A DNA stretch of 41,769 nt from Gammaproteobacteria bacterium (lineage in GTDB: Bacteria; Pseudomonadota; Gammaproteobacteria; JAUZRS01). The position numbers were made by a program, and so were the translations under genes. Where the stretch lies: NCBI GenBank assembly GCA_030950195.1, contig JAUZRS010000175.1:1-41769 (forward strand), given 5' to 3'. This document shows positions 3,616-13,331 of the stretch, in pieces (the first letter of the stretch is position 1; every line of letters starts with the position of its first letter). The notes beneath the pieces were generated by a model. That model did not search any database, was not told the origin of the DNA, and saw only the letters and a program-made list of their open reading frames with translations.

Positions 3616-5304
3616 CTAAATTCTAAACTGCTGAGTCAAACTCAGTAGGCGACTGGCCAGTTGTTCTACCTGTTGTACCTGATTGCTGCTGTGCTCCCCT
3701 GCTTGAGCGGCGGCGCGCGAGGTGGCGCTGATGCCGGTTAGATTTTGGTTGACGCTGCCGATGGTCTGCTCCTGTTGTTTGGCGGCGGAGGCGATTTGTA
3801 AGTTCATGTTGCGCACGGAGTTGACCGAGTGGGTTATTTGACGCAGTTGCCCACCCACTTTGCTGGAGAGATGTAGGGTTGCTTTGGCTTGCTGTTGGCT
3901 CTGTTGCATGGCGCTGACCACCTCTTTGGTGGTGGTGTGTAAGCGCTCGGTCATGCCTTGAATTTTTTGTGTTGAGGCTTGGGTGCGAGAGGCCAAAACA
4001 CGCACCTCATCGGCCACCACCGCAAAGCCGCGTCCCTGTTCGCTGGCGCGCGCCGCTTCGATGGCAGCATTGAGTGCCAGCAGGTTTGTTTGGTCGGCGA
4101 TGCTGCGAATGACATCTAAGACTTCACTGATTTCATCCACGTCCGTTTGCAGGCGGGTAAGGGAGTTCACAGCTTCACCAATGTGATTGGAGAGCTGCTG
4201 AGTGGATTGCATGCTGTTCTGTACGATCTGCTCGCCCTGTTCGGTGTTTCGCGTGGTTTGTTGGGTGGTATCGGAGGCTTTTTCGGCATGACGGACGATG
4301 TCACGGGCAGAGATTTCCAATGCGCCTGCCGAGGTGGTGACGCTGCCGGTTTCTCGGTCTTGATCAATGACCCGCTGACTCGACTTTTGATTGGCGGAGC
4401 TTAACGATTGTGATAGGTGAGAGAGTTCGCCTGTGACCACGATAACCTCGGAGACAATGGCGCTGAATTTCTGCATGACTTGGTTAAACGCATGGCCAAT
4501 TTGTGCGACTTCGTGTTTGCCGGTTTCATCCAGTCGTTGGCTTAGGTCACCCTCTCCTTGAGCTATTTTATCCAGCGCAGTAATCACTTGATTAAGGCGT
4601 TTGCCAATGGTGCGCTGGAAAATAAAATAGAGCGATACCCCGAGCAGCAGCCCCACCAGCGCCAGAGCGATTATAAAACCGTTGCTGATACCGTTGGCGA
4701 TCAGCAGTTGTTTGTCAATGGGGGTGATGATCTCCAGTACGCCGCGCATCTCACCCAATTGCCAGTCGTCTTTGGGGGTGTCGAGGCGGTTGTTATGGCA
4801 ATTGACGCAGGTCTCGTTGATCATCACATCAGCAACGCCAACTCGGACGCTGGTTTTTCCTTGGTGCTGTTCGGTGCGCACAAAGGGCGCTGTGGGTGTT
4901 TCACTGAGTGCTTGCCAAGCGTCTTCTTCGAAAGTGTCCAGAAGGCGGTCTGTTCGATTGGGAAAGGGGTAGGCGGAATAGAGTCGAATGGTGGTGCCGT
5001 TATTTTGCAATAAATCGCTGAGATCGTGAATCAGGGTGGCGGGCAGCGGGATGCTGTTGGTTTCGTTTTTATGTTTAATTGAGGCTTTAAAATGGCCATT
5101 TTTGATCACTTTAGCGACCACGTTTTTGGTGTAGTAGGCGCGAATGGTTTTGAATTGTTGCGCTATTTGCAGTGCTTGATCTAAGGCGATCTGCTCTTCA
5201 AACTGTTGCATGGCACGGGGGACGTAAACGCTGATGGCCACAAAACTCAGCAGACAGAGTGCCAGAATGGGGATAAAGAGTCGCCAAAAGAGAGAGTGTT
5301 TCAT
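3616..5304 (-). CDS. Methyl-accepting chemotaxis protein with periplasmic CXXCH (haem-c) sensor domain
   Basis: 562 aa with an N-terminal TM, a roughly 170-aa periplasmic domain containing ETCVNCHNN, and a second TM ([20 protein letters not shown]). A HAMP domain follows. The highly conserved MCP signalling hairpin is present: [40 protein letters not shown]. Confidence 0.88.
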
Positions 5305-5483: not shown

Positions 5484-6674
5484 TTACAACGTGCAACCAC
5501 TGCCCAAAATAGAGCCACTGGTCACAGGGTCTTGTGCCCAGTCACCAACTAACGTGGTGCCTGTTGATTTCAATGTAAAAGAAGTGCTATCACTGATAGA
5601 ACCGAACCAACTGTCGGTTGTGGCGGAGTAGTTGGCTGTCAGTGGTAAAGAGGTGTTGCTGACGTAGTTATAAACAATTCCGCTGAGTGTGTTATTGGCA
5701 TCGCTGTCAAAGGCATAAAATCCCAGCACCGTACCGCTGCTGTCGCTGTAAAGAGCGGTGTAACGTTGAGTCGCGCTGCTGCTGTGGCCGACTCGACGGG
5801 TGTTAAACGTGCCACCGACCTGCGTATCAGCGTCGTTCCAACTGCCCTCAATGCCGTTGGTTGAAGTTAATTGACCGCTGTAGGCGGTGTTGCTGTTGTC
5901 TAAGTAGGCGCGGACATTCTGGGTGTAGCCCAGCGCCAGATCGTTGTTGTGTTGGGCGGAGATAAAAAAGTGCTGGTTGTTTTGGGTGGAAAGAGTGCCA
6001 CTCAATTTGCCGCTATTGGCATCGAGAATAAAGGCGATATTGCCCTCGGGTGCCGCTTGGGTTGGGCTGGTGACGGTGAGTGGGTCGGTTGTGTAGCTGC
6101 CGACAAACGCGCCGTTGCCTTGGCAGCGCAGCGAAGCGAGAAGGTGAGTTTCGGCTTCAAGGGCGGTGGGGAGAACGCTGGCACGGCCATCGAGGCTGGC
6201 GATCAAAGCGACGGTGCTGGTGAGTGTATTTTGAGTCTCAAAGTTAGGGTTACTAAAGTCGATGGTACTCCAGCCGGTGCCTGCGCTGGCGGAGGTTTGT
6301 ACTGCTGTTGAAATTTGCAGGCCGTTGCTGGCATCGCCGTCGCTGTCCAACATCAAGAGAAAACGGCTGATATTGGTGATGGTGTTGGCATCACTGGAAA
6401 GATCCGTGGGCATTACCCGTCCGTTGTTGACGTTGGCGCTGCCAAAATCAATCGGGCCTAAGAAAAAATTAACCGGTTGCCCGACTTCATAAATGAATTG
6501 GCCTCTGTCATTGGTGTTGCCGCTCTGTGCGCCGGAGCGGTAACTGAGCCCTGCAACGCGGCTGTCGATAAAGGTGCCGCTGGCGGTTTGTATGGTCACG
6601 TTGTTGCTGCTGGTGTCACTACAGGCGTTTAAAATCAATAGACTGGTGGCGAGAGTAAGAAGCACTTTTTCCAT
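5484..6674 (-). CDS. Lipoprotein of unknown function (Ser/Thr/Asn/Gly-rich)
   Basis: The N-terminus MEKVLLTLATSLLILNAC carries a lipobox (L-N-A-C). The 396-aa protein is acidic, poor in Lys and rich in S/T/N/G, with beta-strand-like repeats. No family recognised. Confidence 0.6.
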   Translation of the reverse strand: MEKVLLTLATSLLILNACSDTSSNNVTIQTASGTFIDSRVAGLSYRSGAQSGNTNDRGQFIYEVGQPVNFFLGPIDFGSANVNNGRVMPTDLSSDANTITNISRFLLMLDSDGDASNGLQISTAVQTSASAGTGWSTIDFSNPNFETQNTLTSTVALIASLDGRASVLPTALEAETHLLASLRCQGNGAFVGSYTTDPLTVTSPTQAAPEGNIAFILDANSGKLSGTLSTQNNQHFFISAQHNNDLALGYTQNVRAYLDNSNTAYSGQLTSTNGIEGSWNDADTQVGGTFNTRRVGHSSSATQRYTALYSDSSGTVLGFYAFDSDANNTLSGIVYNYVSNTSLPLTANYSATTDSWFGSISDSTSFTLKSTGTTLVGDWAQDPVTSGSILGSGCTL

Positions 6675-6878: not shown

Positions 6879-6983
6879 TTAGAACATACCATTGTCCAGC
6901 ATCATGGCGATGGAAACGCGAAGGGTGATGGTGAATAAAATGAAGCCGCTGATGATCAGGGTAATAACGCTGCTCTGTTGCAT
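6879..6983 (-). CDS. Small hydrophobic protein, 34 aa (not in the ORF track)
   Basis: Manual translation gives MQQSSVITLIISGFILFTITLRVSIAMMLDNGMF*. GAGGA lies 7 nt upstream of the ATG. The product has one predicted TM helix, and a terminator lies about 60 nt downstream. Confidence 0.4.
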   Translation of the reverse strand: MQQSSVITLIISGFILFTITLRVSIAMMLDNGMF

Positions 6984-7173
6984 GATTGAATCCTCAATAT
7001 GTTGTTTTAGATAGAGTTTGTTAACTCTGTGCTGTTGTTAGCTAGAATAGCGCCCTTTTATTAAAGGGATTGGAACGCCTTCACATTTTGAATGATAAGC
7101 GGATCACAAAACTGGTCTTAATGGCTGTTTTTCTTGGGTTTTATGATCCAGTAGACATTTTTTAGGCAGGCAT

Positions 7174-7209
7174 AAAAAAACGGCAAGTGATAATAAAATC
7201 AGCTTGCCG
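7174..7209 (-). terminator. Rho-independent terminator of gor (minus strand)
   Basis: The stem CGGCAAG (7181-7187) pairs with CTTGCCG (7203-7209). A7 at 7174-7180 becomes a U-tract after the stem on the minus strand. It lies 44 nt after the gor stop. Confidence 0.6.
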
Positions 7210-7252
7210 TCGATGTTTTGTTTTACGCCTAGTGTTGTATTTTGTGCGAGCG

Positions 7253-8605
7253 TTAGCGCAAGGTAACCAACTCTTCAGAGCTGGTGGGGTGAATGGCAAC
7301 GGTATCATCAAGATCTGATTTGGTGGCCCCCATGCGAATGGCGACGGCAAACCCTTGCAGCATCTCGTCGGCACCTGGCCCAATGATGTGGCAGCCGATG
7401 ACCTTCTCCTCGGCACCGACGGTGATCAGTTTCATCGCGGTGGGTACCTTGTGTTCGGTGAGGGCGTGATACATAGAGGTGAAACGGGTTTGGTAGACCT
7501 TGACCGCTTTGCCGTGTTCTTCACGGGCATCTTCTTCACTGAGGCCGACGGTGCCGATGGGCGGATGGCTGAAGACCACACTGGCGATGTTGTCGTAGTT
7601 TAGATAGCGGTTCTCTTTGCCATCAAAGAGACGATCCGCAAGACGGCGCGCTGCTGCGATGGCGACGGGAGTGAGTTGCGCTTGGCCGGTGACATCACCC
7701 AAGGCGTAGATGCCTTCAAGACGGGTGTTTTGGTACTTATCAGTGGTGATGTAGCCCCAGTGATCCAGTGGGATGCCAACCTCGTCTAGGTTCAGCCCCG
7801 CCAGCGCAGGGCTGCGCCCGATGGCCCAGATTACCGCGTCCAGATCTTTCAGCTCCATATTATGATCACTGATTAAGGTGATTTGGCCATTGTCCTGCTG
7901 TTTTAGCTCGGTGGCTTGGCAGCGGGGCAGAATGTTAACCCCGTCGTCCAACATGCTTTCCATTAAGGTGTCGCGCAGCATGGCATCAAAGTTACCCAGC
8001 AGATGTTCTTTGCGCAGCAGCAGATTCACGTCGCTGCCGAGGGCTTGCAGCAGACCCGCCAGCTCCACGGCGATGTAACCGGAGCCAATGATGGCGACCC
8101 GTTTAGGTTGTGTTTGCAGCTCAAAAAAGCCATCGGAGGTGATGCCCAGTTCGGCACCTGGGATTTCGGGCACGTCGGGTTTGCCGCCTGGAGCGATGAC
8201 GATGTGATCGGCGCTGTACTGTTCGCCGTCCACCTCAAGGGTGTGTTGATCGACAAAACGGGCAAAGCCCTGAATATGCTCAATCTTCGAATCTTGCAGG
8301 TAGTTGATGTACCAGTCGTTGATGCCTTGGATATACGCATCGCGTTTGGCCACCAAGGTGCTCCAGTCAAAGCCTTTTTGCTCGATGGCAAAGCCGTAAT
8401 CGGCGGCATCGGAGAGGTGATGTGCCAGCGAGGCGGCGTGCCACATCACTTTTTTGGGTACGCAGCCGCGATTGACGCAGGTACCGCCGAGGTCGTTATT
8501 GACTTCGACCACGGCGCATTTCATGCCGTAATGAGCGGCGCGTTCGGCGACGGATAAACCACCGCTACCACCACCGATGGCAATCAGGTCATAATGTTTT
8601 TTCAT
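7253..8605 (-). CDS. gor: Glutathione-disulfide reductase
   Basis: 450 aa. Contains [12 protein letters not shown] (FAD), the redox-active [13 protein letters not shown], a second dinucleotide fold [12 protein letters not shown], and the C-terminal [12 protein letters not shown] typical of glutathione reductase. Confidence 0.9.
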
Positions 8606-9729: not shown

Positions 9730-10383
9730 ATGAAAAAATCTCTCTTCTCAATGATAGGCCTGTTTTTTAGTGCTTTGTTTTTGGTTTCACCTCTTCAGGC
9801 CGCTTCAGCTATGAATCCGTGTAACCCGTGCGGCATGAAGATGCACAATCCGTGCGGCATGAAGATGCACAATCCGTGCGGGATGAAGATGCACAACCCT
9901 TGTGGTGCCAAAAGTGCGGGTGTTGATCGAAGAAAAGTCACTCGTCCAGCCGGATTGCCTTTGAAGCAAGGTAATCATACTAAAATGGTTAGAGAGGGTA
10001 AAAAACTGTTCAGTGATACTTCATTGAGCAGCAACGGCTTGTCTTGTAATGCCTGTCACACGCAACACGCCCTGTTTAAAGACACCTTTTCTGAAGCGTA
10101 TCCGCACTACGTGAAAATGGCCAATGAGCAAGCAGGGGTGAAAAAAGTAGAGCTGGATGAAATGGTGCAGTTTTGTATGGTGGTGCCGATGGCCAGCAAT
10201 CCCTTGCCGTGGGACTCAACTAAATTGGCTGCCTTGACTGCTTACACCGCTGAACTGCAAAAAACCTTTAAACCAGGTCACGCTGGTGCGATGAAAAGCA
10301 TGGGCAATCCCTGCAACCCTTGTGCTATGAAAATGAAGATGCACAACCCTTGTAACCCCTGTGGAATGAAAAAACGCTGGTAA
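9730..10383 (+). CDS. Secreted monohaem c-type cytochrome flanked by NPC(N)PCGMK(M)H Cys/Met/His repeats
   Basis: The signal peptide ends ..PLQAASA|M. The N-terminal tail is MNPCNPCGMKMH-NPCGMKMH-NPCGMKMH-NPCGAK. The haem motif is CNACH (nt 10045-10059), preceded by GKKLFSDTSLSSNGLSC. The C-terminal tail is GNPCNPCAMKMKMHNPCNPCGMKKRW. Confidence 0.78.
   Translation: MKKSLFSMIGLFFSALFLVSPLQAASAMNPCNPCGMKMHNPCGMKMHNPCGMKMHNPCGAKSAGVDRRKVTRPAGLPLKQGNHTKMVREGKKLFSDTSLSSNGLSCNACHTQHALFKDTFSEAYPHYVKMANEQAGVKKVELDEMVQFCMVVPMASNPLPWDSTKLAALTAYTAELQKTFKPGHAGAMKSMGNPCNPCAMKMKMHNPCNPCGMKKRW
9826..9897 (+). repeat. Three tandem 24-bp in-frame repeats (CCGTGCGGCATGAAGATGCACAAT)
   Basis: Copies at 9826-9849 and 9850-9873 are identical. 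The copy at 9874-9897 differs by two synonymous changes. Each copy encodes PCGMKMHN. Confidence 0.92.
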
Positions 10384-10522
10384 GTAGGTCATTTATCCAA
10401 GTAAAACGGCTTGTTTTGCTTGGGTTGGCTTGATTTTTTAGGTTAGGAATGGTGTACTTGCACTGCTGTTATTTCAGTTTAACTTAACAAATTAAAGAGC
10501 CAAAAGGCTCGGAGGAACGCCC

Positions 10523-10903
10523 ATGAAAATCTCTCTCGCTACCTTAGTAGGTCTGTTTTTGAGCAGTTGGTTGTTGATGGTGGCACCGGCCAGTGCAGAA
10601 CATCACATGAACCCATGCAATCCTTGTGGCATGAAAAAAATGGATCACCAGAACCCTTGTAACCCTTGTGCTGTAAAAGCGGAGCATTATAAAAAATGTG
10701 AGAGTAAAAAAGTCCACAACCCATGTAACCCTTGTGCTGCAAAACACAAACATGATAAAAACTGTGATGTGAAAAAACACCATAACCCATGTAACCCTTG
10801 TGCCATGAAAAAGATGGATCATGACAAAATGAAACATCACCACAACCCTTGTGCTATGAAAAAAATGCACAATCCATGTAATCCTTGCGGAATGAAATAC
10901 TGA
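10523..10903 (+). CDS. Secreted NPCNPC-repeat Cys/His/Met-rich protein (putative periplasmic metal-binding protein)
   Basis: GGAGG lies 7 nt upstream. The signal peptide is MKISLATLVGLFLSSWLLMVAPASA|EHH. The 101-aa mature protein has 5 NPCNPC units and 1 NPC unit, with 13 Cys, 14 His, 9 Met and many Lys. Confidence 0.72.
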   Translation: MKISLATLVGLFLSSWLLMVAPASAEHHMNPCNPCGMKKMDHQNPCNPCAVKAEHYKKCESKKVHNPCNPCAAKHKHDKNCDVKKHHNPCNPCAMKKMDHDKMKHHHNPCAMKKMHNPCNPCGMKY

Positions 10904-10949
10904 TCAACATATTGGTTGATGCAGCAGGGAGGCTGCTCTTTGAGATGCA

Positions 10950-12146
10950 ATGTTTATGTTTAAAAAAAATATTTTCTTGTTTTTATATTTTGTTTTTTCA
11001 CCTACTCTTTTTTCTGCCCCTTCTGTTGAAACTCAAACTTTTTTAGATCGTCATTGGCAAAGACCGCTTGCCAGCCAAGGGTTTGTTATAGAAAAAAACC
11101 CTGTTTTAACTCACTCTTTGCTGCCAGAAAAATGTGGCCGTTGCCATGTGCAGCAATTTAAAGATTGGTCTGGCAGTCTGCATAGCAAGGCGATGAGCCC
11201 AGGTTTAATCGGGCAGTTAATGGAGATGGCAGCCACTGACCGAGAGAGCCAGCAAGCCTGTCTGCGTTGCCATGCGCCCCTTAAAGAGCAAGCAGAGAGT
11301 CTCGTTGCCAGTTTGAGGACAGGAAAAAATAAAGGGCTGCATACGCAAGGGCTGATCTGTGCAGGTTGTCATTTGCGCGAGGGCAGGTGGTTTGGCCCGC
11401 CGCGTAAAGATGGCTCTATACCCACTCCTGATGAGAAAAAACAGCTGCCTCATAGCGGCTGGAATTCACAAGCGGCTTTTGAAGATTCGGCCTTTTGTGC
11501 AGCTTGTCACCAATTTGATCAAGAGACGGGTTTTGCCATTAATGGCAAGTTATTGGAAAACACCTACCAAGAGTGGTTGGCCAGCCCTTTTGCGGAGCAG
11601 CAGAAAAGTTGCCAGAGCTGCCATATGCCCAATCGTCGTCACCTTTGGAAAGGCATTCATGATGCTGAAATGACTCGCAATGGCATCACTATTGAGATTC
11701 GTCAGCCTAATTTACGGGGTGACAACATTTCAGCGCAGTTTTATTTGAAAAACAGCGGCACAGGGCATAACTTTCCGACTTATATAACGCCCAAGATTTA
11801 TCTGCAAGGGGTGCAGTTGGATGCCAAAGGCAGTGAGATTGCAGCGACTTTTTTACAATACCCCATCGGCTGGAAATTGGAACTGGATCTCTCCGGCGAG
11901 CAGTACGACACTCGTTTGGCTCCCGATGAAGAGCTGAAGATTGATTATGCACAGGCGCGTGACCCTAACGCGGTCAGTTTGTTGCTGAAGGTGGTGGTGG
12001 AGCCGGATGCCTTTTACAGCCGTTTTTATCGCAGCCTGTTGGAAAATGGTTACGCTAAAAAAGGCAAACAGCAGATTGAGCAGGCTTTGAGGGAGAGTGA
12101 AGCTTCGGTGTACATTTTATTTGAACGGCGTTTAGCTTTGCCTTAA
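10950..12146 (+). CDS. Secreted pentahaem c-type cytochrome with a non-haem C-terminal domain
   Basis: Hydrophobic N-terminus MFMFKKNIFLFLYFVFSPTLFSA. There are five CXXCH motifs (CGRCH, CLRCH, CAGCH, CAACH, CQSCH) between nt 11133 and 11624. The last roughly 170 aa lack haem motifs. Confidence 0.8.
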   Translation: MFMFKKNIFLFLYFVFSPTLFSAPSVETQTFLDRHWQRPLASQGFVIEKNPVLTHSLLPEKCGRCHVQQFKDWSGSLHSKAMSPGLIGQLMEMAATDRESQQACLRCHAPLKEQAESLVASLRTGKNKGLHTQGLICAGCHLREGRWFGPPRKDGSIPTPDEKKQLPHSGWNSQAAFEDSAFCAACHQFDQETGFAINGKLLENTYQEWLASPFAEQQKSCQSCHMPNRRHLWKGIHDAEMTRNGITIEIRQPNLRGDNISAQFYLKNSGTGHNFPTYITPKIYLQGVQLDAKGSEIAATFLQYPIGWKLELDLSGEQYDTRLAPDEELKIDYAQARDPNAVSLLLKVVVEPDAFYSRFYRSLLENGYAKKGKQQIEQALRESEASVYILFERRLALP

Positions 12147-12944: not shown

Positions 12945-13331
12945 ATGAGCAAAAATGTAATCACTGGAGCCTCTTGTAAGTCTGCGGCGAAATGGTTTAA
13001 CTACGGCAATATTCTCGCAATGTTGATTCCATTGCCTTTTTTTGTGTTGTGGTTTGGTGGTTCAATTGTGTTGTATGCCATTAATCGTCACCATCCGAAT
13101 GAAAAAGTAGGAGAGTACACCCAAAAAGCGGCACACAGTTTTTATGCCACTGCCGCGTTGTTGGTGGTGGTAGGTACCTTTTTTCCTGCTGATGTTTTTT
13201 ATTATTTGGTGTTTTGGGCGGTATCAGCGGCCTACGTTTTACCTATGGCGATTATGGATATTCGCAAAATCAACCGTGATGTCTGGGATGATGTCAACCT
13301 CAATTCTGTGCGAGAACAAACCCAATCATGA
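12945..13331 (+). CDS. Small integral membrane protein, function unknown
   Basis: 128 aa with about 3 predicted TM segments ([24 protein letters not shown]; [13 protein letters not shown]; [18 protein letters not shown]). GAGGGTGGA lies upstream. The stop overlaps the bioB start (ATGA at 13328-13331). Confidence 0.5.

Follow-up and report, generated by a model that had tools for sequence, protein, structure and literature searches.

In contig JAUZRS010000175.1 of a gammaproteobacterial genome (GenBank assembly GCA_030950195.1), three consecutive genes encode secreted proteins in which cysteine-rich repeats and c-type haems are brought together; they are considered here within a stretch of 41,769 nucleotides, hereafter called the window. 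As the initial annotation had stated, the three open reading frames (ORFs), namely gene 1 (9730-10383, 217 aa), gene 2 (10523-10903, 126 aa) and gene 3 (10950-12146, 398 aa), all lie on the + strand, with intergenic gaps of 139 bp (gene 1/gene 2) and 46 bp (gene 2/gene 3). All three products begin with a predicted signal peptide, read from the sequence by eye, in which a hydrophobic core follows the basic n-region and leads to an AXA-type site, where cleavage is predicted between ASA and M (gene 1), ASA and EHH (gene 2), and FSA and PS (gene 3). The count of CXXCH haem attachment motifs was also right, i.e., one in gene 1 (CNACH) and five in gene 3. Genes 1 and 2 are further characterised by a repeated Asn-Pro-Cys (NPC) tripeptide, which in gene 1 forms an arm on either side of the haem core. 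The features of the trio, with the evidence on which each is based in brackets, are the following (pLDDT, predicted local distance difference test score of the AlphaFold, AF2, model):

9730-10383 (+): gene 1, monohaem SoxA/TsdA-type cytochrome c between NPC poly-cysteine arms, 217 aa (Pfam, homologues, AF2, Foldseek)
9730-9810 (+): gene 1 predicted signal peptide, residues 1-27, ...PLQAASA/MNPC (read from sequence)
9811-9921 (+): gene 1 N-terminal arm, MNPCNPCGMKMH-(NPCGMKMH)x2-NPCGAK, 5 NPC (sequence; pLDDT <50; holds the 24-nt x3 repeat)
9922-10284 (+): gene 1 haem core, residues 65-185 (alignments, AF2, Foldseek)
10045-10059 (+): gene 1 CNACH haem attachment motif, residues 106-110 (motif count)
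10174-10176 (+): gene 1 Cys149 codon (VQFC), candidate distal haem ligand (invariant; aligns with SoxA Cys114)
10285-10380 (+): gene 1 C-terminal arm, GNPCNPCAMKMKMHNPCNPCGMKKRW, 4 NPC (sequence; AF2 disorder)
10523-10903 (+): gene 2, secreted stand-alone arm protein, 126 aa (ORF, composition, orthologues in L085 and L001)
10950-12146 (+): gene 3, secreted PHC/MccSep/c552-family pentahaem cytochrome with C-terminal immunoglobulin-like (Ig-like) domain, 398 aa (profile, Foldseek)
11019-11681 (+): gene 3 haem domain, five CXXCH (motif positions, alignments)
11682-12143 (+): gene 3 Ig-like beta-sandwich domain with GTGHNFPTY (AF2, alignment to MccSep)
11781-11783 (+): gene 3 Tyr278 codon, at the position of MccSep Sec325 (profile alignment)

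Respective to their own amino-acid compositions, genes 1 and 2 would be expected to contain 0.06 and 0.12 NPC tripeptides, i.e., about 0.1 each, against 9 and 11 observed, and when every window ORF of 40 aa or longer is counted, 20 of the 21 NPC fall in these two genes. In both genes, recent DNA duplication is apparent, namely of a 24-nt unit present three times with 97% identity in gene 1 (9826-9896) and of a 66-nt unit present 2.4 times in gene 2 (10646-10803). Apart from a below-threshold Cornifin hit, the repeat has no match in Pfam or NCBIfam and no description of an NPCNPC/CNPC repeat was found in the literature searched, which agrees with its earlier placement outside characterised families. 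The arms were surveyed in the 120 closest gene 1 homologues, and the wider family in its best 146 representatives. At least three NPC are present in 120/120 of the closest homologues (median 12, maximum 33), on both sides of the haem core in 116/120, which speaks against the lineage-specific drift that had been considered at the outset. In the conserved arm unit, NPCAAK, the N-P-C precedes small residues and a Lys. The CNPC pair (CXXC) occurs in 67/120 only, and the His plus Met content of the tails has a median of 6% and stays below 5% in 49/120; the Met/His copper context originally proposed is thus not general.

It could nonetheless be argued that genes 1 and 3 encode ordinary electron-transfer cytochromes, the tails being linkers or drift and gene 2 a spurious or decaying fragment: the repeats grow by DNA duplication, 54 of the 146 family representatives have no NPC, many of them being tail-less, and one of the closest gene 2 relatives (P0242) shows degenerate NPC units. 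The family members lacking tails or NPC do imply an arm-independent role for the haem core. Still, such an explanation appears very improbable when set against the retention of NPC arms across phyla and the existence of independent Cys-repeat types. It would also have to dismiss NPC-only genes with good signal peptides, which adjoin gene 1 homologues in about 35 of 80 genome loci with gene 1 homologues (the set to which all neighbour counts refer, gene 3 and ECF sigma neighbours being assigned by BLAST against defined queries), as well as 60 separately retrieved small proteins and the invariant termini of gene 2 among its orthologues. Since distant members bear different Cys units, i.e., KCGAC or GCGPK, the cysteines of the arms, more than the exact unit, appear to be under selection rather than drifting. 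Within the gene 1 core family, tails of other kinds comprise (i) KCGAC repeats in P0416, KCGACKAKCGAC, (ii) GCGPK units in P0387, and (iii) an acidic/His-rich tail without Cys in P0424. NPCNPCAKK repeats are also fused to DUF5818-like domains, with extra Cys, and to DUF5666-like domains (P0313, P0339, P0357, P0322, P0314, P0333), from which the NPC arm can be regarded as a portable module; these fusions provided no functional clue. Modification of Cys to formylglycine, suggested by an FGE-sulfatase neighbour in 9/80 loci, was rejected on the grounds that the arms have no CxPxR motif.

Gene 2 is composed almost of such an arm alone, its 126 aa including 11 NPC, 13 Cys, 14 His, 11 Met and 20 Lys. 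It belongs to no Pfam or NCBIfam family, and an exact-sequence look-up returned no record. The 60 small secreted NPC proteins retrieved range from ~70 to 220 aa, mostly 70-145 aa, and differ with their origin. Those of marine Gamma- and Zetaproteobacteria, the window included, have spacers rich in Met, His and Lys and predicted mature N-termini of the form X-H-H or X-X-H, namely EHH in the window and GHH or AHH in many others; those of freshwater betaproteobacteria carry plain NPCAAK without His or Met. Amino-terminal sites for Cu(II)/Ni(II) show the same pattern as X-H-H and X-X-H. P0241 and P0242, to which gene 2 is most closely related, have stretches of His, Met, Asp and Lys instead of internal NPCNPC, both termini being invariant, which favours metal binding in this lineage. 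Along with the Met/His spacers, the predicted X-H-H N-terminus of gene 2 points to copper or another soft metal in the window's lineage, and it is for this lineage only that copper binding appears plausible.

The haem domain of gene 1 had been attributed to the CCP/MauG type, which must be revised. The whole-domain Pfam match is SoxA-TsdA_cyt-c (PF21342), over residues 90-175 with 31.5 bits for a cut-off of 27, CCP_MauG being restricted to residues 87-119, i.e., profile positions 4-37 of 149. In an AF2 model built on 73 homologues, the core (residues ~65-185) is confidently predicted with a pLDDT above 90, and both tails, below 50, are predicted to be disordered. Using this model, Foldseek placed TsdA 4wq7 and SoxA 3oa8, 1h31 and 2c1d on top with a probability of 0.99-1.0, the structures of MauG and CCP peroxidases ranking beneath. 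With one CXXCH, a partial Pfam match and this lower structural rank, a CCP/MauG di-haem peroxidase was rejected as an identity for gene 1. Among gene 1 homologues, the CXXCH (residues 106-110), P125, H126, C149 and W161 are invariant, in the case of Cys149 over 73 aligned sequences, and M130 and Q147 are nearly so. When the family profile is aligned with SoxA of R. sulfidophilum (1h31_A, N-terminal haem domain, E ~3e-4), the His of CXXCH falls on His80 and Cys149 on Cys114, which we take to be the two axial ligands of SoxA haem 1. Owing to this correspondence, the gene 1 haem is probably His/Cys-ligated; it is also probably low-potential. TsdA binds thiosulfate via Arg109, Arg119 and Ser127 around Cys123 (PMC4423706). 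At these positions gene 1 has instead Ala135, Met145 and Pro153 (-14, -4 and +4 from Cys149), and its Cys149 region, DEMVQFC, resembles that of the non-catalytic SoxA haem-1 domain, EQMINAC. A thiosulfate dehydrogenase or catalytic SoxA function was consequently rejected, since the substrate-binding Arg/Arg/Ser of TsdA are not conserved. Gene 1, with its single CXXCH, has no second haem domain in cis; from synteny, the adjacent pentahaem cytochrome could serve as its second-haem electron outlet.

Gene 1 homologues amount to 856 matches in a 90%-clustered collection and, in a 50%-clustered library, to 736 clusters at E <=1e-3 and 273 at E <=1e-10. The 120 closest homologues are distributed over Gamma-, Beta-, Alpha- and Zetaproteobacteria, Myxococcota, Methylomirabilota (NC10), Ca. 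Entotheonella and Dadabacteria, and carriers are enriched among microaerophilic iron oxidisers, e.g., Gallionella, Sideroxydans, Ferrigenium and Mariprofundus. Public gene calling is at fault for NPC-repeat genes. For instance, the public call of gene 1 in the window (P0001, 190 aa) begins at M28 and thereby loses the signal peptide, and its exact-sequence look-up returned no record. In Amphritea sp. HPY (L084), an antisense ORF over the NPC repeats was called as a gene, 6941-7480 (-) against 7014-7967 (+), and the cytochrome call was cut to 147 aa, even though the sequence contains an ORF of 317 aa complete with signal peptide and arms. A search of plasmids found one case alone, a 69-residue gene 1-like core fragment without intact ORF on the unannotated plasmid p1 of Cupriavidus sp. 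KK10 (L091, NZ_CP073678.1, 9001-9207). This fragment, probably the remnant of a pseudogene, is located between a CzcCBA-type resistance-nodulation-division (RND) efflux operon and a thioredoxin-CcdA pair, an extracytoplasmic function (ECF) sigma factor and an AhpD-like gene.

Gene 3, whose family counts 1486 homologues, carries its CXXCH motifs at residues 62, 104, 137, 183 and 221, together with five further invariant His, namely 78, 168, 231, 237 and 273, the last of which belongs to the following Ig-like domain. This C-terminal beta-sandwich (residues 245-398) bears an invariant GTGHNFPTY. Searched against the PDB, the family profile matches MccSep (9wt8, E 1.2e-11) and the T. tepidum cytochrome c552 (5ze8, E 1.4e-11), and 5ze8 is also the top Foldseek match (E 3.8e-11); NCBIfam ExtKL scores 55.8 bits, far under its cut-off of 250. 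In the AF2 model, the Ig-like domain has a pLDDT mostly of 70-98 and the haem domain one mostly below 60, so that the usable parts are the Ig-like domain and the overall match to 5ze8. MccSep is a polysulfide reductase in which haem 2, His/Cys-ligated via Cys239, works with Sec325 of the Ig-like domain (bioRxiv 10.1101/2025.11.18.688581), the four other haems being bis-His. As for the pentahaem c552 of T. tepidum, it is described as low-potential at the point where PMC11976967 cites Chen et al. 2019. By profile alignment, haem-2 ligand Cys239 and catalytic Sec325 of MccSep correspond to Leu202 and to the invariant Tyr278 in gene 3; four of the five extra His of gene 3 align with MccSep His, and His237 aligns with a non-His residue. 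This extra invariant His237 suggests a bis-His haem 2, and gene 3 probably has five bis-His haems. With Cys239 and Sec325 replaced and His237 added, gene 3 is most simply seen as an all-bis-His electron wire, which shares the scaffold of MccSep but not its catalytic residues. In several gammaproteobacterial homologues, gene 3 is extended by ~150 residues forming a C-terminal thioredoxin domain with a WCPTC motif (L081 8987-10660; L067 10893-12581; L030 729-2456; L019 2052-3833). In Amphritea sp. HPY, gene 3 is followed by a secreted 154-aa protein (L084 9318-9782, +) without Pfam match, ending ...SCPLNPTPDYRLIV, which has no counterpart in the window.

The conservation of the trio as a neighbourhood, proposed initially as a test, is borne out. 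In 21/80 loci, a gene 3 homologue comes directly downstream of a gene 1 homologue, the median distance being 24 bp. Gene 1, gene 2 and gene 3 follow one another in this order in the window, in its relatives L001, L085 and L086, and in metagenome-assembled genomes (MAGs) of Nitrosomonadales (L007), Dechloromonas (L011) and Methylocystis (L057), and the trio recurs in other orders in MAGs annotated as Burkholderiales or Betaproteobacteria (L048, L056, L025, L060) and in a Methylomirabilota MAG (L062). It is as such a real functional neighbourhood, recurrent in three classes of proteobacteria (Alpha-, Beta- and Gamma-) as well as in the MAG of Methylomirabilota (NC10). In loci lacking gene 3, other genes take up position near gene 1. 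A DsbD_TM/CcdA protein and a periplasmic thioredoxin adjoin gene 1 in 18-20/80 loci, and no locus of this set combines them with gene 3 (Fisher p = 0.002). Also recurrent near gene 1 are an ECF sigma factor (TIGR02943) and a short ZAS anti-sigma factor weakly similar to RsrA, as are TlpA-like redoxin, AhpD-like CMD proteins and HD-GYP. In Amphritea sp. HPY (CP194015.1), the operon runs ECF sigma, anti-sigma, TlpA, gene 1, gene 3.

From this context could be derived a sacrificial periplasmic sink for oxidants, where the Cys/Met-rich arms would scavenge HOCl, H2O2 and electrophiles and be regenerated by haem or thioredoxin donors. Such a sink has a precedent in MrpX/YedY, controlled by an ECF sigma/anti-sigma pair (PMC4436054), and would suit both the ECF sigma, RsrA-like ZAS, TlpA-like redoxin, AhpD-like CMD and CcdA-thioredoxin neighbours and the enrichment of carriers among microaerophilic iron oxidisers. 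It leaves unexplained, though, the fusion of the arms to a SoxA-type haem of their own, as well as the X-H-H N-termini and the mer linkage described below; moreover, no Msr gene is found nearby and no regulator in the window. On balance, we consider an oxidant sink rather improbable.

The commonest gene directly downstream of gene 1 is DUF6969 (PF22308), in 47/80 loci with a median gap of 42 bp (including L004, L025, L048, L052 and L056, e.g., L048 8245-9093); it is absent from the window and largely excludes gene 3 (p = 2e-5). DUF6969 has no signal peptide and is apparently cytoplasmic, a periplasmic DUF302 and then a YeeE-type transporter often coming next, and nothing relevant on it was found in the literature, which was likewise uninformative on DUF302 and YeeE with the sigma factor. 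Sulf_transp/YeeE occurs in 29/80 loci and periplasmic DUF302 in 26/80, both co-directional downstream of gene 1 in many Burkholderiales. Such an association is in line with a sulfur carrier akin to SoxAX-SoxYZ, in which thiosulfate, sulfide or polysulfide would be conjugated oxidatively, at the gene 1 haem, to the cysteines of the arms, the arms would act as the SoxY swinging arm, and gene 3 would take up the electrons as SoxX or TsdB do; in a variant, the pair would work like MccSep and reductively free sulfide from persulfides on the arms. Sulfur bound in this way would then be handed to YeeE-type transporters or further processed. The formation or cleavage of S-S bonds with thiosulfate is common to all characterised SoxA-family haems (PMC4423706), gene 3 has the polysulfide reductase MccSep as its closest characterised relative, and the solved fold nearest to gene 3 comes from a purple sulfur bacterium. 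The residues concerned are nonetheless missing on both sides, i.e., Arg109/Arg119/Ser127 of TsdA in gene 1, which resembles the non-catalytic haem-1 domain of SoxA, and Cys239 and Sec325 of MccSep in gene 3; no sox, dsr, rhodanese or YeeE gene is present within the window, and control by ECF sigma/ZAS anti-sigma factors together with mer linkage is reminiscent of a stress response, not of energy metabolism. A sulfur carrier of this kind is therefore judged unlikely.

Regarding metals, the only specific association is with mercury resistance. A mer operon with a true merA (identity to L087 MerA of 67% or more) lies within 10 kb in 7/80 loci, in several arrangements, which a rough estimate places far above chance. 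In L087 and L088, a single block lacking merP is made up of merR, merT, merC, merA, gene 1 and gene 3, the last five genes being co-directional. Mer operons beside or in line with gene 1/gene 3 are found at L087 5132-9918, L088 480-5266, L048 2480-8214 and L037 4310-10573. Nothing relevant was found in the literature on mer operons with cytochromes, and the window itself has no mer gene, a tblastn search with MerA hitting only the glutathione-reductase-like gene at 31.8% identity. Copper, advanced at first as the likeliest metal, has no linked genes in these loci.

Considering all of the above, the three genes would constitute a periplasmic haem-to-thiol redox module keeping cysteine arms reduced, a reading we favour while granting it somewhat less than an even chance. 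It builds on the domain identities, arm conservation, synteny and neighbourhood statistics established here, to which the His/Cys haem ligands, the way in which electrons flow and the nature of the cargo are added by inference. Electron transfer between haem and cysteine sulfur is put forward because of the SoxA-type haem, probably Cys-ligated and low-potential, with its arms, the presumably low-potential pentahaem partner, the thioredoxin fusions, and the apparent interchangeability of gene 3 with CcdA/thioredoxin. Gene 3 would draw electrons from the respiratory chain and pass them to the gene 1 haem, which in turn would reduce S-S bonds on the arms, be they disulfides within CNPC or mixed adducts involving sulfur or metal. 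The arms of gene 1 and of gene 2, the latter being seen as a free-standing copy of the Lys-rich disordered arms of gene 1, would thereby be kept as thiolates in the oxidising periplasm, where they could form a high-capacity buffer or carrier of thiophilic species. The direction is taken as reductive because CcdA-thioredoxin pathways are reductive. Of the soft-metal module, likeliest for copper, or thiol relay proposed in the initial annotation, it is the thiol relay wired to haem carriers which fits best, given the thioredoxin-fused gene 3, the exclusion between gene 3 and CcdA with thioredoxin, and the TlpA-/AhpD-like neighbours; copper is plausible for the window's lineage only.

The cargo could be a soft metal, sulfane sulfur or thiosulfate, or an oxidant. 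In favour of the capture of soft metals are the mer linkage and, in the window's lineage, the Met/His and X-H-H features. Carriage of sulfane sulfur or thiosulfate is favoured by the ancestry of the haem proteins and by YeeE, and weakened by the lost substrate-binding and catalytic residues. By analogy with MrpX, an oxidant sink is favoured by the ECF/ZAS and redoxin context.

Several observations weigh against the haem-to-thiol module. (i) The sixth ligand of the gene 1 haem could be the invariant His126 or the nearly invariant Met130 instead of Cys149. (ii) Electrons could flow in reverse, thiol oxidation feeding them into the chain. (iii) Exclusivity between gene 3 and CcdA with thioredoxin is not absolute, both being present in L087. 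(iv) The commonest downstream neighbour, the apparently cytoplasmic DUF6969, is not accounted for by the model. (v) Copper genes are linked to no locus, and heavy-metal RND efflux to 1/80 only. (vi) NPC is missing from more than a third of the best family representatives, as given above. (vii) In the window, no regulator, thioredoxin, metal or sulfur gene adjoins the trio.

The flanks of the trio are indeed housekeeping genes, i.e., the glutathione-reductase-like gene, ubiA, comF, bioB and bioF, and the trio is somewhat AT-richer than its surroundings, with a GC content of 40-47% against 51% for the whole window. Elsewhere in the window, the ORF at 3616-5304 (-) encodes a methyl-accepting chemotaxis protein with an N-terminal Tll0287-like domain and a single CVNCH (residue 166), which is probably a haem-c sensor. 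Two conserved ORFs without Pfam match, 5484-6674 (-, 396 aa) and 12945-13331 (+, 128 aa), are both syntenic in the related contigs L085 and L086.

Taken one step further, the trio could represent a new periplasmic redox system, where a multihaem cytochrome replaces DsbD/CcdA-thioredoxin and drives a His/Cys haem with fused multi-cysteine 'capacitor' arms; this bolder proposition is doubtful. The arms would then be a rechargeable thiolate buffer against soft metals (Hg, Cu), sulfane sulfur or oxidants. The folds of the components are known. As far as searched, there is no description of a cytochrome with NPC arms, of an arm protein standing alone, or of the two paired with a pentahaem cytochrome of non-catalytic MccSep/c552 type. 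If the haem-to-thiol model is true, electrons from respiratory haems can keep up protein thiols beyond the cytoplasm, neither DsbD nor thioredoxin being required, and the NPC arms would be a new repeat module, shared by hundreds of protein clusters whose bacteria come from groundwater, marine and hydrothermal settings and comprise iron oxidisers and methylotrophs. A function would likewise be provided for the non-catalytic MccSep/c552 pentahaem branch and for the tail-bearing branch of the SoxA family, and an unannotated gene pair inside or beside mer operons might be explained. Cultured carriers include Amphritea sp. HPY and probably Ferrigenium sp. UT4, a named-strain record and not a MAG.

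Among known systems, the SoxA-TsdA_cyt-c fold and the conserved Cys at the position of the SoxA haem-ligating Cys relate the gene 1 core to SoxA and TsdA, and gene 3 could stand in as a separate cytochrome partner in the manner of SoxX or TsdB. Unlike SoxAX and TsdA, gene 1 has a single haem domain, the TsdA Arg/Arg/Ser are not conserved, no other sox genes are present, and the partner is a pentahaem cytochrome. The flexible Cys arms recall the C-terminal arm of SoxY, which reacts at the SoxA haem (PMC4423706); in SoxYZ, however, SoxY offers one GGCGG on an Ig-like protein, whereas the arms of gene 1 are fused to the cytochrome itself and carry NPC in multiple copies. With PcoE/SilE, CusF and the CopA/CueO loops, the arm proteins of the window's lineage share a secreted, low-complexity, Met/His/Lys-rich character and the swap of His/Met for NPC units. 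There is no homology to these binders, though, which use Met/His without Cys, and Met/His is not conserved in the NPC family: neither gene 2 nor the arms match any Cu(I)/Ag(I)-binder family in Pfam or NCBIfam, and the 120 homologues show no conserved Met/His ligand motif. MrpX/MsrP likewise associates a secreted low-complexity protein rich in sulfur amino acids with a periplasmic reductase, often under an ECF sigma/anti-sigma pair (PMC4436054), except that MrpX is Met-based and regenerated by a molybdoenzyme, while the NPC module is Cys-based with haem partners.

The need of periplasmic Cys-based copper proteins for dedicated reductases is illustrated by Scs/CueP with ScsB/ScsC (PMC10907172). 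The NPC module would similarly combine a Cys-dependent periplasmic binder with a dedicated reductant, and a DsbD-like protein and thioredoxin are indeed near gene 1 in the 18-20 of the 80 loci mentioned above; it differs in having no sequence relationship to Scs/CueP, in that its reductant can be a multihaem cytochrome and its binder itself bears haem, and in that its copper binding is putative. Lastly, gene 3 resembles MccSep and ExtKL, i.e., the pentahaem cytochromes (PHC), as well as c552, in its five CXXCH within an alpha-helical cap and its C-terminal Ig-like domain, and departs from MccSep by Leu202 in place of the haem-2 ligand Cys239, the invariant Tyr278 in place of Sec325 and the extra His237. 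The His/Cys haem chemistry of MccSep may here be supplied in trans by gene 1. By way of resemblance, gene 1 and gene 3 would together look like an MccSep-type S-S reductase split into two proteins, namely the wire in gene 3 and the His/Cys haem with its nucleophilic thiols in gene 1.

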